A DNA stretch of 64,000 bases from the sequence record MN850584.1. One strand, written 5' to 3'. Both the position numbers and the translations under genes were made by a program. The notes under the pieces are model-generated. The model was not told the origin of the DNA and made no database searches. It was given only the letters and a program-made list of their open reading frames with translations. How positions within the stretch are numbered: position 1 is the stretch's first letter; each line of letters begins with the position of its first letter. Source of the DNA: Escherichia phage arall. This document shows positions 181-51,042 of this stretch, piece by piece.

Positions 181-2160
181 TTGTTAGAAATTAACACTTC
201 CAAGATTAAGAATACAGTAACGTTTACTGTAGATAAAGACAGTTTAAAAAATACTAAAGACGCAATTAAAAACCTTAAAACTTTTACAGAATCTATTGAA
301 CCATCTTTAAATATGACTAAAATGCGTCGTCAGTTTAAAAGTATGGAAGAGTATGCTAAAAGAATAAGGCAGCAAATGTCAGGTCTTGGCGGCGGTAATC
401 CTCCACCAATCCCACCAACCGGAGGTTCAAGTGGTGGTGGAAAAGGAGGAAGTGGTAGAGGTGGTTCTGGATCTTCTGGAGGACGTAAGACACCGGAGGA
501 AAGAGCCGCAGAAGCCGCCGCTAAACGTGCAGCACTTGCTAATATGAAGCAAGACGATTTTAGTTTTAAAGCTATGCCTTTTACAAAAGCAGACAGCAGA
601 ATTCTAGAAAAATCTAAAAAGATTGTAGAAGAAACTCTTGAACTTTATCGTAAAGGCGTGATTACTAGCCAACAAATGAACAATACTTTGGCTAGACAGT
701 TAGAAGAACTACGCAGATCTCATAGAGAGAAGAATGCACAACTTCTTGATGAAGAGAGAGCTAGACGTAGAATTGCCCGTCTGCAAGAAGCAGAAGATAA
801 AAGAAGACAGCGTATCCGAGAAAGAGAAAGAAAGGATTTCGAACGTCAGCAAAGAAGAGAGAAAGAAGCAAGACAACGAGATAGACAACGTAAACTATCT
901 GGTGTAGGTAATGCTGCTATTGCTCTTAACCCCGCTATGTTTGGTGCTGCTCTTTTAGGTGCTGGTTTATATCAAGGTATAAGCAAAATAGCTGAAAGTA
1001 TCACAACTGCGGCAGAACGTATTAATATGGTTAGTAAAGGTGGTCAGAACGTACAGGTAAACCCTAATGCAATTTTAACAATGCGTACTTGGGGTGAGAT
1101 GAACGGTGTAGACTCTGCCAGCATTATTAAAGCCATTGACAATATTAAAGACGTTCGTGAACGTTTAGGTAATACTGTACTCCACTCTGAATTTGATGAA
1201 AAATCAGGTAAATGGAAAGGTGGAGATAGTGGTATTAATGAAATCATGAACCAATTTGGTTGGTCGAAAGAAGATGTTGCTAAATTCCAGAACAGACCTT
1301 TAGACTTTGTTCAAGCACTTGTTAATGAAGGTCAAAAAAGAGGAATGAACTCCGCGCAAATTGGTCGTTTGATGGAAAACCTTGGTGATGACTTAATGCA
1401 CTACCAACGTATGTTTTTGGATAACGGTAAAGAGTACATGAAAGTCTTGGATATGTTAAAAAATTCAGGGGCAACTCTTAACGATGAAAACATCAAAGCA
1501 GCACAAGATTTTGTTAAGCTAAGAGCACAAATTAGTGCAGCAGGAGAAGGTTTTACCAATAATTTACTTATAGGATTCATGGATGGTTTAAAATCTGCAC
1601 CAGATTTTGCAGAGAATATGAAAACTTTCCAAGAAGCTGCTCGTGGTCTTGGTGAAATGTCTGGTAGTATTGTAAGTAGCCTTGCAAAAATTGCGAAATA
1701 CTTCCTTGATTTTTCAAATAAGGTTGGGCCAAAAAACAATACTAAAGAAGCTGTAAGAGATTATTATAATGGTACGCAGTATGGGTACGATGCACAGGTT
1801 GGTGGTAATCCTTGGGCTTATTGGCCTATTGGAAGAGATCAACATAAACCTGAAAATCAACCTTTAGGTGACTTTGATAGTAGTTTCTTAACTAGTGCCT
1901 TAAACCCAAGTGCTTCTAGTATCGGTTACAATAGACCTGATTTAACAGCATCTATGCTAACACCACGCCAAGGTGTTCCAATACCGTTAAGTCTAGAGAA
2001 TACGGTTGTTATCCCAGACAACGCATTCCAGATTAATGTTATTCCAGATGGTTATGGTTTTAGTAATTACCTAGATGCGACAATGAATACCAGTTTTAGT
2101 AACTTCTCACAAGGTTTAACTCTTCAGTTAAGCAGTGGACAATCTTCTACTGGTGGTTAA
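181..2160 (+). CDS. tail tape measure protein (candidate)
   Basis: 659 aa; TTG start 6 nt after GGAGGA; Gly/Ser/Pro-rich linker (GGGNPPPIPPTGGSSGGGKGGSGRGGSGSSGG); long Arg/Glu/Gln-rich coiled coil; first gene before baseplate-like genes. Confidence 0.5.
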   Translation: MLEINTSKIKNTVTFTVDKDSLKNTKDAIKNLKTFTESIEPSLNMTKMRRQFKSMEEYAKRIRQQMSGLGGGNPPPIPPTGGSSGGGKGGSGRGGSGSSGGRKTPEERAAEAAAKRAALANMKQDDFSFKAMPFTKADSRILEKSKKIVEETLELYRKGVITSQQMNNTLARQLEELRRSHREKNAQLLDEERARRRIARLQEAEDKRRQRIRERERKDFERQQRREKEARQRDRQRKLSGVGNAAIALNPAMFGAALLGAGLYQGISKIAESITTAAERINMVSKGGQNVQVNPNAILTMRTWGEMNGVDSASIIKAIDNIKDVRERLGNTVLHSEFDEKSGKWKGGDSGINEIMNQFGWSKEDVAKFQNRPLDFVQALVNEGQKRGMNSAQIGRLMENLGDDLMHYQRMFLDNGKEYMKVLDMLKNSGATLNDENIKAAQDFVKLRAQISAAGEGFTNNLLIGFMDGLKSAPDFAENMKTFQEAARGLGEMSGSIVSSLAKIAKYFLDFSNKVGPKNNTKEAVRDYYNGTQYGYDAQVGGNPWAYWPIGRDQHKPENQPLGDFDSSFLTSALNPSASSIGYNRPDLTASMLTPRQGVPIPLSLENTVVIPDNAFQINVIPDGYGFSNYLDATMNTSFSNFSQGLTLQLSSGQSSTGG

Positions 2161-2165
2161 TGCAT

Positions 2166-2195
2166 AAAGCCTCGCTTCGGCGGGGCTTTTTATTT
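2166..2195 (+). terminator. rho-independent terminator after tape-measure gene
   Basis: 10-bp stem AAAGCCTCGC/GCGGGGCTTT (one G-U pair), TTCG loop, followed by TTTTATTT. Confidence 0.6.
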
Positions 2196-2198
2196 GTC

Positions 2199-2228
2199 TT
2201 GACAAAGAGTTGTTTTTCGTGATAAAAT
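2199..2228 (+). promoter_or_regulatory. sigma-A/sigma-70-like promoter candidate
   Basis: TTGACA (2199-2204), 17-18 nt spacer, TAAAAT; sits between terminator and the 2276 gene. Confidence 0.4.
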
Positions 2229-2275
2229 GAGTGATAAGGGAGAATGTTTCTTATCACATTAAGAGGTAAAATTAT

Positions 2276-2986
2276 ATGGCAGCAAACACTCCAGAACAAC
2301 ACGTTCAAGCGGTTTATAAAGCGGAACAAGATATAAATTCTACAAAAAACACAAATAACTCTGCCTCTACTGTGAAAGGGGAGAATGGTTTTTGTATTTT
2401 AGCAAGTGTTTACAATAGTGCAAGTGATCAATATATTCAAAACTACCAAGCTATAGTTTTTGATGCTGTTCCAAATATCGGTGTAAAACGTCAAGCAGAT
2501 GTAACTAGTTATCCTGTAGAAAATGGAGCTAATGTATCGGATCACGTTCAAGTTAAGAATAATACTTTCTCTTTATCAGGAATGATTACAGAGACACCTG
2601 TAAGGTTGATGCGAGATATGTTATATAGTGCTGGTGTTAACGGTACTCGTATTAGTCAAGCAATCACTTACTTAGATAAAATATTTGATGAAAGACAGCC
2701 TATCATTTTAATAACAGAACATAAGGTGTATGAGAATGTTATTTTGAAAGGCATATCATATGAATATCAAACAGAATATGCAATGCAATTTGATTTGGAG
2801 TTTGAACAAGTAAGATTAGTTTCTTACGGGGAAACAAATGCTATTGCGCTTAAGACACAACCAAATAAGAATACAGGTGTTAAGAACAAAAAAGGTACTA
2901 GTCCAGATGCTGATCTTGATGCAAGAACAGGGAAAGCAACTGGTACAGAACATCTTAGTGATCATAGTGCAGATGGTAAAAAATAA
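2276..2986 (+). CDS. tail/baseplate structural protein (unknown family)
   Basis: 236 aa ORF, ATG with upstream GAGG; position immediately after tape measure. Confidence 0.45.
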   Translation: MAANTPEQHVQAVYKAEQDINSTKNTNNSASTVKGENGFCILASVYNSASDQYIQNYQAIVFDAVPNIGVKRQADVTSYPVENGANVSDHVQVKNNTFSLSGMITETPVRLMRDMLYSAGVNGTRISQAITYLDKIFDERQPIILITEHKVYENVILKGISYEYQTEYAMQFDLEFEQVRLVSYGETNAIALKTQPNKNTGVKNKKGTSPDADLDARTGKATGTEHLSDHSADGKK

Positions 2987-2997
2987 GGAGAAAATTT

Positions 2998-3417
2998 TTG
3001 GCTATTTCATCTTATTCAAAGATCAGTAGAAGCACATCTAATAGTGGCTACAATGCAGTATTTATTGATCGAACTTTAGGCTACTATTCTTGGTACTTAC
3101 CTACAGAACAGTACCCAGATCAAACATATACAGTAACTCTCGATGGAGTAGATTACGATATACGTTTGAGGTGGAACACAAGAGATCAAGCGTGGCAAAT
3201 GCAATTAGGCTTATCAGGAGATAATCCTAGTGTAACTTTTAAAGTAACCAATGGCTTAGATCTTCTAGAACCCTATAAGTATATAGAATCTGTACCGGAT
3301 GGTCAACTTTATTTGGTAGATACTGTTAAAATAAACGGTAGACCTAATTACTATGACACAGGTGTAGATAAAAGATTTGCTTTGGTTTATATCGACGCTC
3401 TTCCATATCAAGCATGA
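2998..3417 (+). CDS. hypothetical structural protein
   Basis: 139 aa; TTG start 7 nt after AAGGAG; tightly packed in baseplate module. Confidence 0.45.
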   Translation: MAISSYSKISRSTSNSGYNAVFIDRTLGYYSWYLPTEQYPDQTYTVTLDGVDYDIRLRWNTRDQAWQMQLGLSGDNPSVTFKVTNGLDLLEPYKYIESVPDGQLYLVDTVKINGRPNYYDTGVDKRFALVYIDALPYQA

Positions 3418-3432
3418 TAAAAGGAGTTTTAA

Positions 3433-4443
3433 ATGGCAGAAAAAAGAGATTATACAAAAGCTCCTGCACCCAATCTAAACAGAGCATACAAACTGTTAAT
3501 AGGTACAGCTACTAATACTAAAGAAAAAAGGACAAAAAATTCCTCTTTCAAATCTACAGTAGACTTAGATACTAAACTAGGGGATGCTAAAAAATCAACC
3601 CCTAATTTGTATGTTATTACGGAGCACCAAATATCTTTCACAATAAGAAAAGATAATAATAAAGATCCTAATCAAGCTGAGATAACTATTTATAACCTAA
3701 GCGATGATACTGTTAATTATATTAACAAAGGTATTCGTAACAACTTGGCTGTTGCTTTGGCGGTAGGTTATGAAGGTCAAGAGTTAATTATGATCTTTAA
3801 GGGAACGGTGCAATGGGTGAGTGATACTTTTAACAATACAGACAGACGTACAGTGTTACATTGTCTGGATGGTGGTATTAACATCTCCGAAGCAAGGACA
3901 AGCAGAAGTTATCCGAAAGGTACAAAAGTAAGTAAAGTTGTTAAAGATTTAGTTAAAGATTTAGGTACTACAGAAGGTAATATTCACGTAGACACAGAGA
4001 AAACTTTATCATCTGCAACAGCTATGTGTGGTAACACATCACATTACTTAGAAAGTATCTGTAAAGGTATTGATCATAATGTGTCGATACAAGATGGATC
4101 TGTTTACGTGACACCAAGATCACAAATGTCTAGTGCAAGATGCGCATATATTAGTGCAGAAACAGGTTTAATTGGTAGTCCAGAACCTTTCCACAATGAT
4201 ATTAAACCAACACAAAAAGTAACTAAATCTTCTAAGAAAGCTAAAAAGCCTACAGATGGTGTTAAGTTCAGATGTGAAATGAACGGTGCTATCTTACCAG
4301 AAAAAACTGTTTGGCTCAAGAGTCATAACTATGATGGTGGTTTTAAGGTAGTATCTGTTGTTCATACAGGAGATAGGGAAGGTAAAGACTGGACAACTGA
4401 AGTAGAGTCTGTATCTGTATCTGCAATTATTAAGAAGGGCTAG
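3433..4443 (+). CDS. baseplate hub-like protein (XkdQ/gpD-like by position)
   Basis: 336 aa; AAGGAG RBS; position between tape measure and spike-like gene; no motif confirmed. Confidence 0.35.
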   Translation: MAEKRDYTKAPAPNLNRAYKLLIGTATNTKEKRTKNSSFKSTVDLDTKLGDAKKSTPNLYVITEHQISFTIRKDNNKDPNQAEITIYNLSDDTVNYINKGIRNNLAVALAVGYEGQELIMIFKGTVQWVSDTFNNTDRRTVLHCLDGGINISEARTSRSYPKGTKVSKVVKDLVKDLGTTEGNIHVDTEKTLSSATAMCGNTSHYLESICKGIDHNVSIQDGSVYVTPRSQMSSARCAYISAETGLIGSPEPFHNDIKPTQKVTKSSKKAKKPTDGVKFRCEMNGAILPEKTVWLKSHNYDGGFKVVSVVHTGDREGKDWTTEVESVSVSAIIKKG

Positions 4444-46966: not shown

Positions 46967-47437
46967 TTAGTCAGATTCCCAAATGTTGTCTTTCTTAACC
47001 CACATTCGTTGATTATCTGAACCTCTATAACGTTTCGTTGTTGGTTGATTCATATCATACTTACCATCTATCACTATGTCAACCAGTTTTTTAATTTTCT
47101 CTGGAATTTCTTCAAAAAGATATCCTGTATATAAGACAATATCTTTTTTGTTTCCAAAACAATCTCTTACCTTCTCAAGAACATACTCTACAGTGTCAAT
47201 GTTCTCTTTGTCAAGAGGTTCACCACCTAAAACTGTTAATCCTTTAATGAAAGGTCGAGATAAATCTTCCAAGATAAGATCTAATGTTTCAGCAGTGAAC
47301 TCTTGTCCGTAGTTATACGACCAGGCTTTCTGGTTAAAGCAGCCACGGCAACCGTGGCTACAACCGCTCACCCACAAAGAGCATCTTACACCGTCACCGT
47401 TGAGCATGTCAACAGGTTCATATCCGGCGTAATTCAA
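46967..47437 (-). CDS. nrdG: anaerobic ribonucleotide reductase activating protein
   Basis: 156 aa; radical-SAM cluster motif CSHGCRGC (CxxxCxxC); overlaps nrdD stop. Confidence 0.75.
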   Translation of the reverse strand: MNYAGYEPVDMLNGDGVRCSLWVSGCSHGCRGCFNQKAWSYNYGQEFTAETLDLILEDLSRPFIKGLTVLGGEPLDKENIDTVEYVLEKVRDCFGNKKDIVLYTGYLFEEIPEKIKKLVDIVIDGKYDMNQPTTKRYRGSDNQRMWVKKDNIWESD

Positions 47438-48375
47438 AAGTGTTTCTCCCTTTCTAGTACCTCTTGCATTTTACCTTTATTATAAGGGCGAGAGTTAGGG
47501 GCAGAAAGGTATCCTGACACTCTTCTGATCACAGATATGGATTCTTCTTCGTGATTACCGCAACTTGGACACTCGAAGCCTTTAGCTGTTGCCTTAAATT
47601 CACCATGAAAACCACATTTGAAACACTGATCTACAGGTTGGTTCACGCCAAAATAAGGGATTTTGTTGTAGGCATAATCTACAAGAGTTTCCAGTGCTTG
47701 CAAGTTATTTTTAAGGTTCGGTGTTTCTACATAACCTATGTTCCCACCATTACTAATTTGTGCAAAACCTTCCTCATAATCCCACTTTTGGAACGGGGTA
47801 GTGTGCATCCATACAGGTTGATGGAAAGAGTTTGTCAAGTAGTCACGATCAATAGAGCCAGGATAGCGATCATTTAACGCTTTGGCAAATTTATAGCACA
47901 AGGATTCTGCTGGTGTTCCATACAAACTAAAAGCTAAACCAGAACGTTCTTTAAATGTGCAACAGATATCCTTCATATATTGAAGGATGTTTTTACCCAT
48001 TGCTTTTGGATTGGTGTTACCTGGGTATAAAATCTCCATAGCTTCTGCTAAACCTACATAACCGATACTAATAGAGGCATAACCACCTTCGAATAGCTTA
48101 CCAATCTCTTCATTAGCTTCTAGTCGAGCTAAAGCCCCTTCCATAAACAATGTAGGGTTTTGAGATGCTTTGGTATGTCTAATACGGTTAACACGTAGCA
48201 TATGTGCCTTATACGCCATCTCCATATGTTGTTCCAACAGTTCAGTAAATAAGATGCCCTTTTCACGGGACTCTGCTGCAATGATAGGTAAGTTTAAAGA
48301 AACTACGCCTAAGTTGAAACGACCATCATATTTTTCACCTTGCTCTGTTGCATAGTATGACAAGAAACTTCTACA
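47434..48375 (-). CDS. nrdD: anaerobic ribonucleoside-triphosphate reductase, exon 2
   Basis: Begins CRSFLSYYATEQGEKYDGRFNLGVVSLNLP; C-terminal glycyl-radical region RRVSGYL and Zn ribbon CFKC…CPSC; the ORF-track start (GTG at 48405) is intron read-through; junction approximate. Confidence 0.7.
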   Translation of the reverse strand, partial: CRSFLSYYATEQGEKYDGRFNLGVVSLNLPIIAAESREKGILFTELLEQHMEMAYKAHMLRVNRIRHTKASQNPTLFMEGALARLEANEEIGKLFEGGYASISIGYVGLAEAMEILYPGNTNPKAMGKNILQYMKDICCTFKERSGLAFSLYGTPAESLCYKFAKALNDRYPGSIDRDYLTNSFHQPVWMHTTPFQKWDYEEGFAQISNGGNIGYVETPNLKNNLQALETLVDYAYNKIPYFGVNQPVDQCFKCGFHGEFKATAKGFECPSCGNHEEESISVIRRVSGYLSAPNSRPYNKGKMQEVLEREKHF

Positions 48376-49144
48376 CATTATGTTCAAAGTGGCTCGCAAG
48401 GCCACTCCCGCACCATTACGTGCTGCTGCATGTCACCATGCAGATCAGACTATATCTTCATGCTTAAAGCATGTCTACCATTTGGGGTGTCATAGGCTTA
48501 CACCCTACGCTGCTACATTCATCACAGCTAGTCGTTAGGCATTTCGTAACAGAACTCATAATCATAATTATTTGGTGCTCCGCGCTTTAAGATTGCAGAT
48601 ATTCTTTTTCTGTCCAACCCTAAAGCGTCAGCACAACATCTCAGACTTTTAAAGTAAAAAACTTCACCAGTAGCCTTATGAGTAGCTTTTACACTGTGAC
48701 ACCTTGTGTAGAAAGCATAACAGTTATTATCGTAACCCTCTTGCGTGTTGTCTGGACAAGATCCCCACTCAAGATTGTATACACTGTTGTCTTTCCTATT
48801 GTCACCTTTATGCTTCACATAAGGTAAATTGTCTGGATTGGGTAAAAACGCTTCAGCTACAAGTCTGTGCACCCGAAAGCAAACAGTTTTCTTGTTTTTA
48901 CGTATTCTGACAAGTTGGTATCCTGTGTTTATTTCTTCCCACGAGCGAAGGATTCTTTCATCCTTATACCTGGTACAATAAACATTTCCAAGCTCGTCAA
49001 TTTCATACCCTTCAAAATCACGAATTTGTTTTCTCATACCAGTACCCCCTTCTTCTGTGTTGGGAGTTCTGTTACGTTTAGCACGGGATTGTCTCGTTGA
49101 GAGTTCCCCCGTTTAGGCAGATTTTACATGAGCAGTTATAGTTT
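48376..49144 (-). mobile_element. group I intron interrupting nrdD
   Basis: 769 nt between …ATGGGT (exon ends in U) and TGT…; ends in G; contains P/Q-like pair (CUAAACGGGGGAAC / AAUCCCGUGC) 5' of the endonuclease ORF and R/S-like elements (CCUAACGACUAGC / GAAGAUAUAGUC) 3' of it. Confidence 0.65.
48528..49037 (-). CDS. intron-encoded HNH homing endonuclease
   Basis: 169 aa; FEGYEIDELGNVYCTRYKD…YQLVRI…VHRLVAEAF…KHKGDNRKDNSVYNLEW typical of HNH_3-type homing endonucleases; stop codon falls inside the R element. Confidence 0.65.
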   Translation of the reverse strand: MRKQIRDFEGYEIDELGNVYCTRYKDERILRSWEEINTGYQLVRIRKNKKTVCFRVHRLVAEAFLPNPDNLPYVKHKGDNRKDNSVYNLEWGSCPDNTQEGYDNNCYAFYTRCHSVKATHKATGEVFYFKSLRCCADALGLDRKRISAILKRGAPNNYDYEFCYEMPND

Positions 49145-50002
49145 ACCCATGCTTGTGACGCGACCATCTGAAGATCCTGTAACTTCTTTGTTTAAAGGTA
49201 CAGAGATAAAATCAGGATAAATGCGTTCAGCACAACACTCCATTGCCAGTTGCTTCAAATCATAGTTTGGATCGCCAGCTTTCATGTTAACACCATCTTC
49301 CAAGAAGAAGATAACTTTAGGAAACACAGGAGTTACCCTATCTTTTCCTAATCCTTGTTTGTGCACCATTAGGTAGTTTTTAGTGATCATTCTACCAAAA
49401 GCAGAGGTATCCAAACCTAAACTAATTGTTATAAAAGGTGACTGACCATTTACACTCATTAGAGTGTTCACCTGGTAGATTAAAGTTTGCATTGCATCAT
49501 AGACCTGTTTATCTACCATACGCATAGCAATATCATAATCGCCAACATCGGCATATATTTTATTAAAACTTGCTTTAACGTATTGACTAAGCCCAGTATC
49601 AACATGTGCACAAGTTTGTCCACCATATTGGCTAGAAGCTACTGCTTGAATAATTTGAGTTAGGACAGTAGTCGCTACACCGATAGATTTTGGTTTTTCA
49701 ATATGTGCATTACCAATACGGAAACCGTTCTCAAGCATATCTTGGTAATTTACCAGGCAACAATTAGTTAAAGGTGAGAGTAAATAATCTAAATCGTGAA
49801 TGTGACCATACCCACTTTTATGCCATTCTGCCAGATCTTCCGGTAAAATATGGGTCATTGCCATGTGCTTGCTTAGGATACCTGCTAGTAAGTCTCGGTG
49901 AGTATTAACAATCATTGCAGGTTTGTTTGCATTTTCACGAGTAAATTCTTCGGATGTTTGTTCGAGGAATCCGATTACATCCTCATATAGTTTTTGGGTC
50001 AT
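49145..50002 (-). CDS. nrdD: anaerobic ribonucleoside-triphosphate reductase, exon 1
   Basis: N-terminal NrdD portion ending …DGRVTSMG; the last two ORF-track codons (KL*) are intron-derived; GGAGG RBS. Confidence 0.7.
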
Positions 50003-50011
50003 TAATCCTCC

Positions 50012-50044
50012 GTGGAAAATAAAAGCCAGCTTAATGCTGGCTTT
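50012..50044 (-). terminator. rho-independent terminator upstream of nrdD
   Basis: AAAGCCAGC-ATTAA-GCTGGCTTT hairpin followed by TATTTTCC on - strand. Confidence 0.55.
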
Positions 50045-50091
50045 AGGGTGGATCTTTATTTTAAATCTTTTTCGTAAGATTGTCCTTGATC

Positions 50092-51042
50092 TTAGTCAAG
50101 GTTTTTGGTAATACGTGTACAACCGTCAGAAGTCAAACCGTCAACTTGAGTTTCCCAAGTGCCATGAATATTTCGGAACAATGTTGTTACACCTTTTGGT
50201 TCATTAATAATGATTGCCATAACAAGTTTAGGATCGATAACAGACATAATCTTTTCCTCAATACCCTCTGTAATAACATTATTGCGCACAATATTAATTG
50301 CATCTTCTTGTACAGTAAGAGCACTTACATTCTTAAGAGTATATACCTGCTGTGTAGTGTAAATGATACGAACATAGCTTACAGAACGAGTAGGCACAGG
50401 TTTACGCGGTCGGCGAAAACGTGGTTTTGGTGAAGATTCAGTCTTACTTTCATTTTTTGAATAATACTCCTCAAACAGTTTAGTAAATGTTTTTACATCA
50501 ACTACAAACCGATCTTTCCTATATGGAGAATTCTTATGTGCACCATTAATACCACTGTTTTCATCGAAGAAAGTAATGTTTTCTTCAGTTGAATACATTA
50601 GATAATGATCTGCATTTTTCCAATGTGGTTGTGGACAACGAGGATTACAAACGGAAAGCAGATAACTAATATCTTCTTCCGTGGCATCAGTATCCAGGAA
50701 ACACGTATTATGCACAGTCAGTTGTACTTTTTCAGCCATATCTTTTTCTTTATCCTCTTTAGCAAGATATTCAGTACGAATAATCTCCAGAAAACCTTCA
50801 GGTGTTACTTCCATAAATTTATATTCAGGATGAAGCTCCATATATTCAAATCCACAACCATCTAATTGCTGTAGGAAGTTAGGGTAGAAGAACAAATCAT
50901 TAACACTGTGAATCAGATCATTGATTTCTGCTTCAGTTGTGTAACCAAAACTCTTGTGAATTGCTTCGTTAAGAATATGCAGGATACCCATCTCTTCTGC
51001 TGCTTTTTTAACTTCCAGTTTATTAGCGTAAAATGCAATCAT
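50092..51042 (-). CDS. hypothetical protein
   Basis: 316 aa; basic Pro-rich linker (PKPRFRRPRKPVPTR) between two domains. Confidence 0.45.
   Translation of the reverse strand: MIAFYANKLEVKKAAEEMGILHILNEAIHKSFGYTTEAEINDLIHSVNDLFFYPNFLQQLDGCGFEYMELHPEYKFMEVTPEGFLEIIRTEYLAKEDKEKDMAEKVQLTVHNTCFLDTDATEEDISYLLSVCNPRCPQPHWKNADHYLMYSTEENITFFDENSGINGAHKNSPYRKDRFVVDVKTFTKLFEEYYSKNESKTESSPKPRFRRPRKPVPTRSVSYVRIIYTTQQVYTLKNVSALTVQEDAINIVRNNVITEGIEEKIMSVIDPKLVMAIIINEPKGVTTLFRNIHGTWETQVDGLTSDGCTRITKNLD

Follow-up and report, generated by a model that had tools for sequence, protein, structure and literature searches.

Within the 64,000-nt stretch of the Escherichia phage arall genome that was analyzed (MN850584.1; here called the window), the nrdD gene of the class III ribonucleotide reductase (RNR) is split by a 769-nt insert, which is very probably a mobile T4-type group I intron of subgroup IA that carries the gene of an I-HmuI-like HNH homing endonuclease in P6a (Table 1). 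The evidence comprises the exact boundaries of the insert, the conservation of its fold, the homology of the encoded protein, and a population signature of homing. The window comes from a Justusliebigvirus of the phi92/VEcB group, with approximately 99% identity to Escherichia phage VEcB, and the phages of this genus were used as a source of intron-bearing and intron-less alleles.

Table 1. Features of the nrdD locus and its insert, in the 5′ to 3′ order of the coding strand.
Feature	Coordinates	Strand	Description	Basis
nrdD exon 1	50002..49145	minus	286 codons; ends ...TSMG, last base U	ORF list and Pfam
Group I intron, subgroup IA-like	49144..48376	minus	769 nt, including the endonuclease ORF	J-01 gap, Rfam, covariation
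CUAUA in the P1 loop	49141..49137	minus	Proposed P10 partner of exon-2 +1 to +5 (UGUAG, 48375..48371)	
Internal guide sequence GCUCAUGU	49133..49126	minus	Pairs with exon GCAUGGGU (49152..49145), giving P1	Read from the sequence
Core, 5′ half	49121..49071	minus	P3 5′ strand, P4, P5, P4′, P6 and P6a 5′ strands	Helix coordinates
Hairpin ACUCCC...GGGGGU	49067..49044	minus	Predicted to sequester the endonuclease Shine-Dalgarno sequence	−11.9 kcal/mol, z = −2.6
490-nt segment missing from the phi92-type ORF-less intron	49042..48553	minus	Endpoints in a CTG direct repeat	Alignment
Homing endonuclease gene	49037..48528	minus	169 aa, I-HmuI-like HNH, in the P6a loop	
Core, 3′ half	48550..48389	minus	P6a′, P6′, P7, P7.1, P7.2, P3′, P8, J8/7, P7′, P9, P9.1, P9.2	
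nrdD exon 2	48375..47434	minus	313 codons; first codon is the Cys equivalent to T4 NrdD C290	
nrdG (activase)	47437..46967	minus	Context, outside the element	Pfam Fer4_12 and Radical_SAM

A preliminary description of this region had proposed that the two nrdD ORFs are collinear parts of one gene and that joining DGRVTSMG to CRSFLSYY restores a continuous NrdD, and both proposals were borne out. Exon 1 matched positions 1 to 263 of the Pfam NRDD profile (E = 9e-73), while exon 2 matched positions 264 to 562 and included the glycyl-radical domain (Gly_radical); since the profile positions abut at 263/264, no residue is lost at the break. The joined exons encode 599 amino acids with no internal stop, in a product 99.8% identical to the protein of the sister phage vB_Eco_J-01, and the exon-1 protein was found to be 100% identical in phi92 and VEcB. 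In J-01 the nrdD gene is uninterrupted, and its alignment with the window had a single gap that corresponded exactly to 49144..48376 and for which no alternative placement was possible. This comparison with an intron-less relative, which had been put forward as a check, thus gave base-exact boundaries and upheld the earlier reading that the insert follows an exon U (T at 49145) and ends in G (48376). The ligated junction reads ...AUGGGU|UGUAGAAG..., with exon 1 ending in ...CAAGCAUGGGU and exon 2 starting with UGUAGAAGUUUC. The exon-1 ORF continues into the insert as K-L-stop, to 49136; an intein was ruled out by this stop, which is reached in frame after 9 nt. Downstream, nrdG overlaps the nrdD stop by 4 nt.

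The insertion is in phase 0 and separates the codons of Gly286 and Cys287, which correspond to G289|C290 of T4 NrdD by alignment to PDB 1H78. In class III RNRs this cysteine (C290 in T4 NrdD) is the active-site residue that bears the transient thiyl radical. The intron is therefore located directly 5′ of the catalytic codon, inside the conserved MGCRSF motif.

The insert was confirmed as a group I intron by comparative analysis of its sequence. A Rfam scan of the whole window at the gathering threshold found nothing, and when an E-value threshold was used the Intron_gpI model (RF00028) aligned with the 3′ half only and scored 39.3 bits, where the cut-off is 50. This low score is due to the 490-nt ORF segment inside P6a, which splits the core, and does not mean that a core is missing. 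Once that segment (49042..48553) was removed, the intron was found to be 100% identical to the 279-nt ORF-less intron of phi92, which scored 70.6 bits (E = 4e-18; gathering score 50), and the covariance-model search proposed earlier therefore came out in favor of a group I core. No other match to RF00028 was detected in the window and the only exact match to the S element was that of the nrdD intron, such that a second intron was rejected.

Covariation was scored on an alignment of 12 ORF-trimmed cores (the window, phi92, nieznany, TH18, HMD-6, JSE, F97, T4, and four IMG/VR contigs) against a hand-drawn structure of P1, P3 to P9.2, and P10, in which P7 was entered as a pseudoknot. Overall, 95.5% of the cells were paired and 38 of the 73 pairs showed compensatory changes, values that were reached by none of 500 shuffles; sliding the partners by 1 to 3 columns reduced pairing to 30 to 46%. 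When P3 and P7 were forced into nested pairing only about 22% was paired, and this collapse indicates that the pseudoknot is real. Compensatory changes were found in (i) P3, P4, P5, P6, and P6a of the 5′ half; and (ii) P7, P7.1, P7.2, P8, P9, and P9.2 of the 3′ half. The P7.1 and P7.2 hairpins between P7 and P3′, which were 98.3% (four of five pairs compensatory) and 98.5% paired, respectively, place the intron in subgroup IA, as in the T4 introns. P1 was 96.9% paired across the 12 sequences, and both the U.G wobble at the 5′ splice site (U 49145, G 49133) and the terminal G were invariant in these homologues. The P9 loop is GUGA, and the two strands of P7, GACUA (48533..48529) and UAGUC (48452..48448), are exact complements. 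Both core elements named in the preliminary description were present, but the P/Q label given to AACGACUAG was wrong, as this sequence, the P7 5′ strand, represents the R element; AAGAUAUAGUC, made up of J8/7 and the P7 3′ strand, represents the S element. The conservation of this core and of its boundaries suggests that the nrdD transcript is spliced.

The exon-2 start was examined for its relationship to the intron. On the 12 sequences P10 was 83% paired, which is a weak test. In the window intron P10 is set 3 nt apart from P1, and support for the pairing came mainly from more distant relatives: of 53 metagenomic relatives, 31 had full complementarity between the 5 nt beside the guide and exon-2 positions +1 to +5, with covarying pairs (e.g., CUGCA/UGCAG). 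Among the Justusliebigvirus alleles the diagnostic differences were limited to positions +3, +4, and +6, all synonymous, with exon 2 starting TGTAGAAGT in the intron-bearing and TGCCGTAG(C/T) in the intron-less alleles. The TGTAGA form was found in none of the 31 intron-less Justusliebigvirus records. UGUAG at the start of exon 2 is thus strictly tied to the presence of the intron, a linkage that is probably due in part to the RNA structure of P10.

The 169-aa HNH endonuclease previously proposed to lie inside the intron was supported by matches of the ORF protein to I-HmuI (PDB 1U3E; E = 8e-9 over residues 3 to 166 of 169, I-HmuI being 174 aa) and to PHROG 59 ‘HNH endonuclease’ (E = 2e-34). 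In Pfam, HNH_3 scored 22.0 bits against a cut-off of 24.8 and I-HmuI_NUMOD-like scored 25.4 against 27. The endonuclease belongs to a very large family of phage HNH proteins (652 records at E < 1e-10). Its ORF is complete and free of frameshifts and internal stops. Residues H76, N88, and N97 align with H75, N87, and N96 of I-HmuI and were invariant in five homologues that are 48 to 91% identical to the window protein (including those of HMD-6, JSE, F97, and an IMG/VR contig); based on the I-HmuI structure, we take these residues to be the catalytic His and Asn of the HNH/HNN beta-beta-alpha-metal motif. The I-HmuI residue D74 is a metal ligand, and the position aligned to it is K, K, C, or M in the clade of the window protein, while D79 is invariant. 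As the D74 equivalent is not conserved, the active-site chemistry of the window endonuclease may differ, and D79 may substitute for D74. The intact reading frame and the invariant residues would fit an active enzyme.

The ORF was found to be intertwined with the ribozyme. Its last 24 nt (encoding FCYEMPND-stop) double as P6a′, P6′, J6/7, and P7, and its TAG stop at 48530..48528 overlaps the end of P7, in agreement with the earlier observation that the stop codon falls inside the R element. P6a covaries between phages while the coding capacity is kept, as in the pairs CGUAAC/GUUACG, CAUAGCGG/CCGCUAUG, and CAAAGUAUU/AAUACUUUG. At the other end of the ORF, the Shine-Dalgarno hairpin is formed from other sequences in HMD-6 (ACUCCU/AGGAGU) and in JSE, with compensatory changes, and is retained by the ORF-less phi92 intron. 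In T4, translation of the intron ORFs is restricted by a ribosome-binding site held in a hairpin. The conserved hairpin of the window intron may likewise control the translation of the endonuclease. A scan for promoters inside the intron found seven compared with 5.8 expected from shuffles, and thus no excess.

Alleles were counted among the Justusliebigvirus records of the GenBank phage collection. The intron with the endonuclease gene was present in four records (two of VEcB, SD2, and phiWec187), an ORF-less intron of 279 or 290 nt (phi92 type) was present in 19, and 31 had no intron (as in J-01 and muut). With its retained hairpin and ORF 3′ end, and with the endpoints of the missing segment in a CTG repeat, the phi92-type intron looks like a deletion derivative. 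Outside the genus, the intron and endonuclease gene were 99.4% identical to those of the Phapecoctavirus nieznany, whereas exon 1 and exon 2 were only 70.9% and 76.8% identical, respectively. The 3′ core was 100% identical between the two phages and the endonuclease protein differed by one residue. This disparity between element and exons indicates recent homing, with transfer of the intron and its endonuclease gene between genera. Exon 2 was also identical to that of nieznany over its first 38 nt, while the 5′ exon differed from position −7 onward, and a one-sided identical tract of this type fits co-conversion from a cut in the 3′ exon. The population signature of homing was therefore present in the form of an element closer than its flanks, co-converted exon sequence, and patchy presence.

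The insertion point ...AUGGGU|UG(U/C)... was found to be occupied by homologous introns in Phapecoctavirus and Vequintavirinae (HMD-6, TH18, and others), in Krischvirus JSE, Felixounavirus Tf, and Vibrio phage F97, and in at least 64 of 115 IMG/VR contigs that had been retrieved with a core motif. The same-site introns of VEcB, SD2, phiWec187, Phapecoctavirus, Vequintavirinae, JSE, Tf, and F97 share both a homologous core and a homologous endonuclease, whose C-terminus is EMPND or similar and is encoded by J6/7-P7. Identities spanned 62% to 99.8%, the P9.1/P9.2 3′ extension varied in length, and some of these introns have no ORF, with versions of 252 to 290 nt kept at the same nrdD site. A review from 2010 found no convincing evidence of such intron movement across phage clusters (PMC2993671).

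These findings can be combined into a working model. The transcribed RNA would fold into the P1-P9.2 core, with the guide GCUCAU base-paired to AUGGGU at the end of the exon, and exogenous guanosine would attack after the wobble-paired U. The exons would then be ligated after the terminal G, with the help of P10 (CUAUA/UGUAG), to generate an mRNA for the intact 599-aa NrdD. Meanwhile, the endonuclease's ribosome-binding site would be sequestered in its hairpin and the 3′ end of the ORF would serve as core RNA. During mixed infection the endonuclease would nick or cut an intron-less nrdD near the insertion site, and repair from the intron-bearing genome would copy in the intron together with a short stretch of the 3′ exon.

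Other explanations of the locus were weighed against this model. The nrdD gene may be truly split, with the insert left unspliced and NrdD assembled from two fragments that are translated separately, an arrangement for which NrdA of Aeromonas phage Aeh1, split by mobE, offers a precedent (PMC3653736, PMC7344957). In its favor, relatives have two nrdD coding sequences annotated in GenBank, the exon-2 ORF can be lengthened by 30 nt into the intron when started at a GTG, and the annotation of phi92 gives gp192 a ribosome-binding site of its own. We nonetheless regard a split protein as highly improbable: the endonuclease ORF is flanked by a group I core that is complete and covaries strongly, the boundaries are canonical (U.G and terminal G), ORF-less versions of 252 to 290 nt kept at the site would be pointless if they were not spliced, and the break falls one codon before the catalytic Cys, within MGCRSF. 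Least credible of all is the reading of nrdD as a disrupted pseudogene and of the insert as a dead remnant. Both exons are intact and 99.7 to 100% identical to those of relatives at the amino acid level, with many synonymous differences, the 3′ core is identical to a copy in another genus, and the downstream nrdG is intact; nothing specific favors this reading, apart from the interruption of the gene and the consideration that the anaerobic RNR may not be required under laboratory conditions.

A spliced intron whose endonuclease is an inactive, decaying passenger deserves more weight, though we consider it unlikely; the element would then be inherited only vertically or be mobilized in trans. 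The full-length ORF, with no frameshift or internal stop and with H76, N88, and N97 invariant, argues against decay, as do the compensatory changes that conserve the regulatory hairpin and the single residue that separates the protein from the nieznany copy across exons of 71 to 77% identity, which implies a very recent transfer. Consistent with an inactive enzyme are the loss of the ORF from most of the intron-bearing Justusliebigvirus (19 ORF-less compared with four with the gene), the lack of conservation at the D74 equivalent, and the Pfam scores under the cut-offs. Thus, the model of a self-splicing intron that homes by means of its own endonuclease is preferred.

The element is real but ordinary, a mobile element that is present in many related phages. 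Its genomic background is not new, as identical or near-identical introns occur in sequenced relatives and the GenBank record of phi92 already has a joined coding sequence, ‘spliced variant gp192A’, at the nrdD locus. In the records of VEcB, JSE, HMD-6, and F97, nrdD appears as two ‘large subunit’ fragments and the intervening ORF is labeled ‘hypothetical protein’, ‘Homing endonuclease’, ‘HNH homing endonuclease’, or ‘HNH endonuclease’; these nrdD fragments should become one spliced gene with an intron-encoded homing endonuclease. In a literature search that had the phi92 genome paper outside its scope, no description of the nrdD cysteine-site intron was found, including in the rV5, CB7, BME3, Felix O1, and T4-like review papers, and no paper was found that combines ‘Justusliebigvirus’ and ‘intron’. 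A 2013 survey found nrdD to be the RNR gene most often split in phages (PMC3653736). The current understanding of group I introns is unchanged by the nrdD element, which adds a case of a mobile element exactly at the codon of a catalytic residue. Furthermore, all three states expected of the homing cycle coexist in Justusliebigvirus: introns that carry the endonuclease gene, introns that have lost it, and intron-less alleles. Together with the indicated recent jump between genera and its short one-sided co-conversion tract, these states would make the genus a convenient natural system for the study of homing outside the T-even phages.

Among the closest known systems is gp192A of phi92 (FR775895, CCF23320.1), of the same genus and at the same site, whose core is identical to that of the window once the 490-nt segment is removed; it differs in the absence of the endonuclease ORF, of which only the last 24 nt are kept along with the hairpin. 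For the protein, a close system is I-HmuI of the DNA polymerase intron of Bacillus phage SPO1, which is likewise encoded by a phage group I intron and is similar over its full length, both proteins having their HNH domain at the N-terminus and a NUMOD-like/helix-turn-helix region at the C-terminus. I-HmuI is a nicking enzyme of another host gene and phage lineage, and the two proteins have low identity and differ at the D74 position. The T4 td intron has the I-TevI ORF looped out of its P6 region and the ribosome-binding site in a hairpin. The placement of the window ORF in the P6a loop with a Shine-Dalgarno hairpin is similar, but the td intron resides in the thymidylate synthase gene, encodes a GIY-YIG enzyme, and shares only a short stretch of core similarity (59 nt).

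The nrdD (sunY) intron of T4 was the best T4 match. The preliminary description had called the window intron analogous to it, and this likeness stood in a stronger form, as the cores are homologous (70.5% identity over 219 nt), with all helices alignable, an identical guide (GCUCAU), and P7.1/P7.2 present, while the site and the endonuclease were found to differ. Both introns lie in the same nucleotide-metabolism gene of a lytic coliphage. However, the T4 intron splits the Tyr180 codon in phase 1, compared with phase 0 at the equivalent of T4 G289|C290 in the window, and it carries the GIY-YIG enzyme I-TevII, encoded downstream of P9 (T4 locus positions 2423 to 3199), instead of an I-HmuI-like HNH enzyme in the P6a loop. 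We tentatively suggest, as a possibility that falls short of an even chance, that the cysteine-site and T4 nrdD introns are one lineage that moved between two nrdD sites and then acquired unrelated endonucleases in different loops, with the cysteine-site form now spreading across phage families. Reverse splicing could have been the route of such a move and is compatible with the data, since the same guide pairs with AUGAGU at the T4 site and with AUGGGU at the window site. On this reading, the spread of the cysteine-site form would cover Stephanstirmvirinae, Vequintavirinae, Straboviridae, Ounavirinae, vibriophages, and dozens of uncultivated phages.

Besides the group I intron at the Cys-site, between the Gly286 and Cys287 codons, a second break was detected in some nrdD genes near window residues 442-447 (the GTPAESLCY region). 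An additional break at G186|Q187 was found in L024, whose nrdD lies in three pieces (1161-3480). Six collinear nrdD pieces, encoding a NrdD of 57-79% identity, were identified in one uncultivated relative (L121, an IMG/VR contig). The gene appears to be an insertion hotspot, interrupted at several different positions.

Two sizes of ORF-less intron, 279 nt (the phi92 type) and 290 nt, were found in Justusliebigvirus; the sizes were judged from the stretches of 343 nt and 354 nt that a 64-nt junction query matched. That the ORF-less introns have two lengths suggests that the endonuclease gene was lost by independent deletions.

Coordinates of features at the nrdD locus and database records of relatives
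Feature	Sequence	Position	Strand
316-aa ORF upstream of nrdD	window	51042..50092	minus
Terminator-like hairpin	window	50022-50044	minus
Intron-internal extension of exon-2 ORF	window	48376-48405	minus
nrdD stop/nrdG start overlap	window	47434-47437	minus
Second nrdD interruption	L010 (Escherichia phage vB_EcoM_TH18); likewise L019, L021, L091, L064	about 1881-2145 (L010)	
nrdD breaks	L121 (6416-10596)	near residues 70, 131, 186, 286, 445	
Justusliebigvirus records listed for the two ORF-less intron lengths	PD06, ECGD1, AMO3598, pEC-M2929-1AR.1		
GenBank 'Campylobacter phage' records	MG065639, MG065645, MG065656, MG065689 (and MG065662 etc.)	matching window 47300-50200	

A terminator-like hairpin (9 pairs, then a T-run) was located about 20 nt 5′ of the nrdD start codon, between nrdD and a 316-aa ORF that is labelled 'ribonucleotide reductase' in several relatives, although phi92 (where it is gp194) and muut list it as a 'hypothetical protein'. 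At the other end of the gene, the nrdD stop codon and the nrdG start (TTG at 47437) were found to share 4 nt (TTGA); this overlap suggests that the reductase and its activase may be translationally coupled.

Matches of ~99% identity to this E. coli Justusliebigvirus locus included the 'Campylobacter phage' A145, A110a, A150 and C3 records, with C. jejuni as the stated host, and Vequintavirus-type sequence was matched by further records so named (A142, A141, A140 and others). The 'Campylobacter phage' records look like mislabelled or contaminating coliphage genomes. With respect to gene models, the exon-2 ORF of the window was found to extend 30 nt into the intron from a GTG start (MALRATLNIM), across P9.2. 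In the annotations of phi92 and VEcB, whose introns are ORF-less and endonuclease-bearing, respectively, the second nrdD fragment begins at an in-frame codon of the GTG-initiated extension, 24 nt into the intron; this intron-internal start is an artefact of annotation that arises when ORFs are called on a gene interrupted by an intron.
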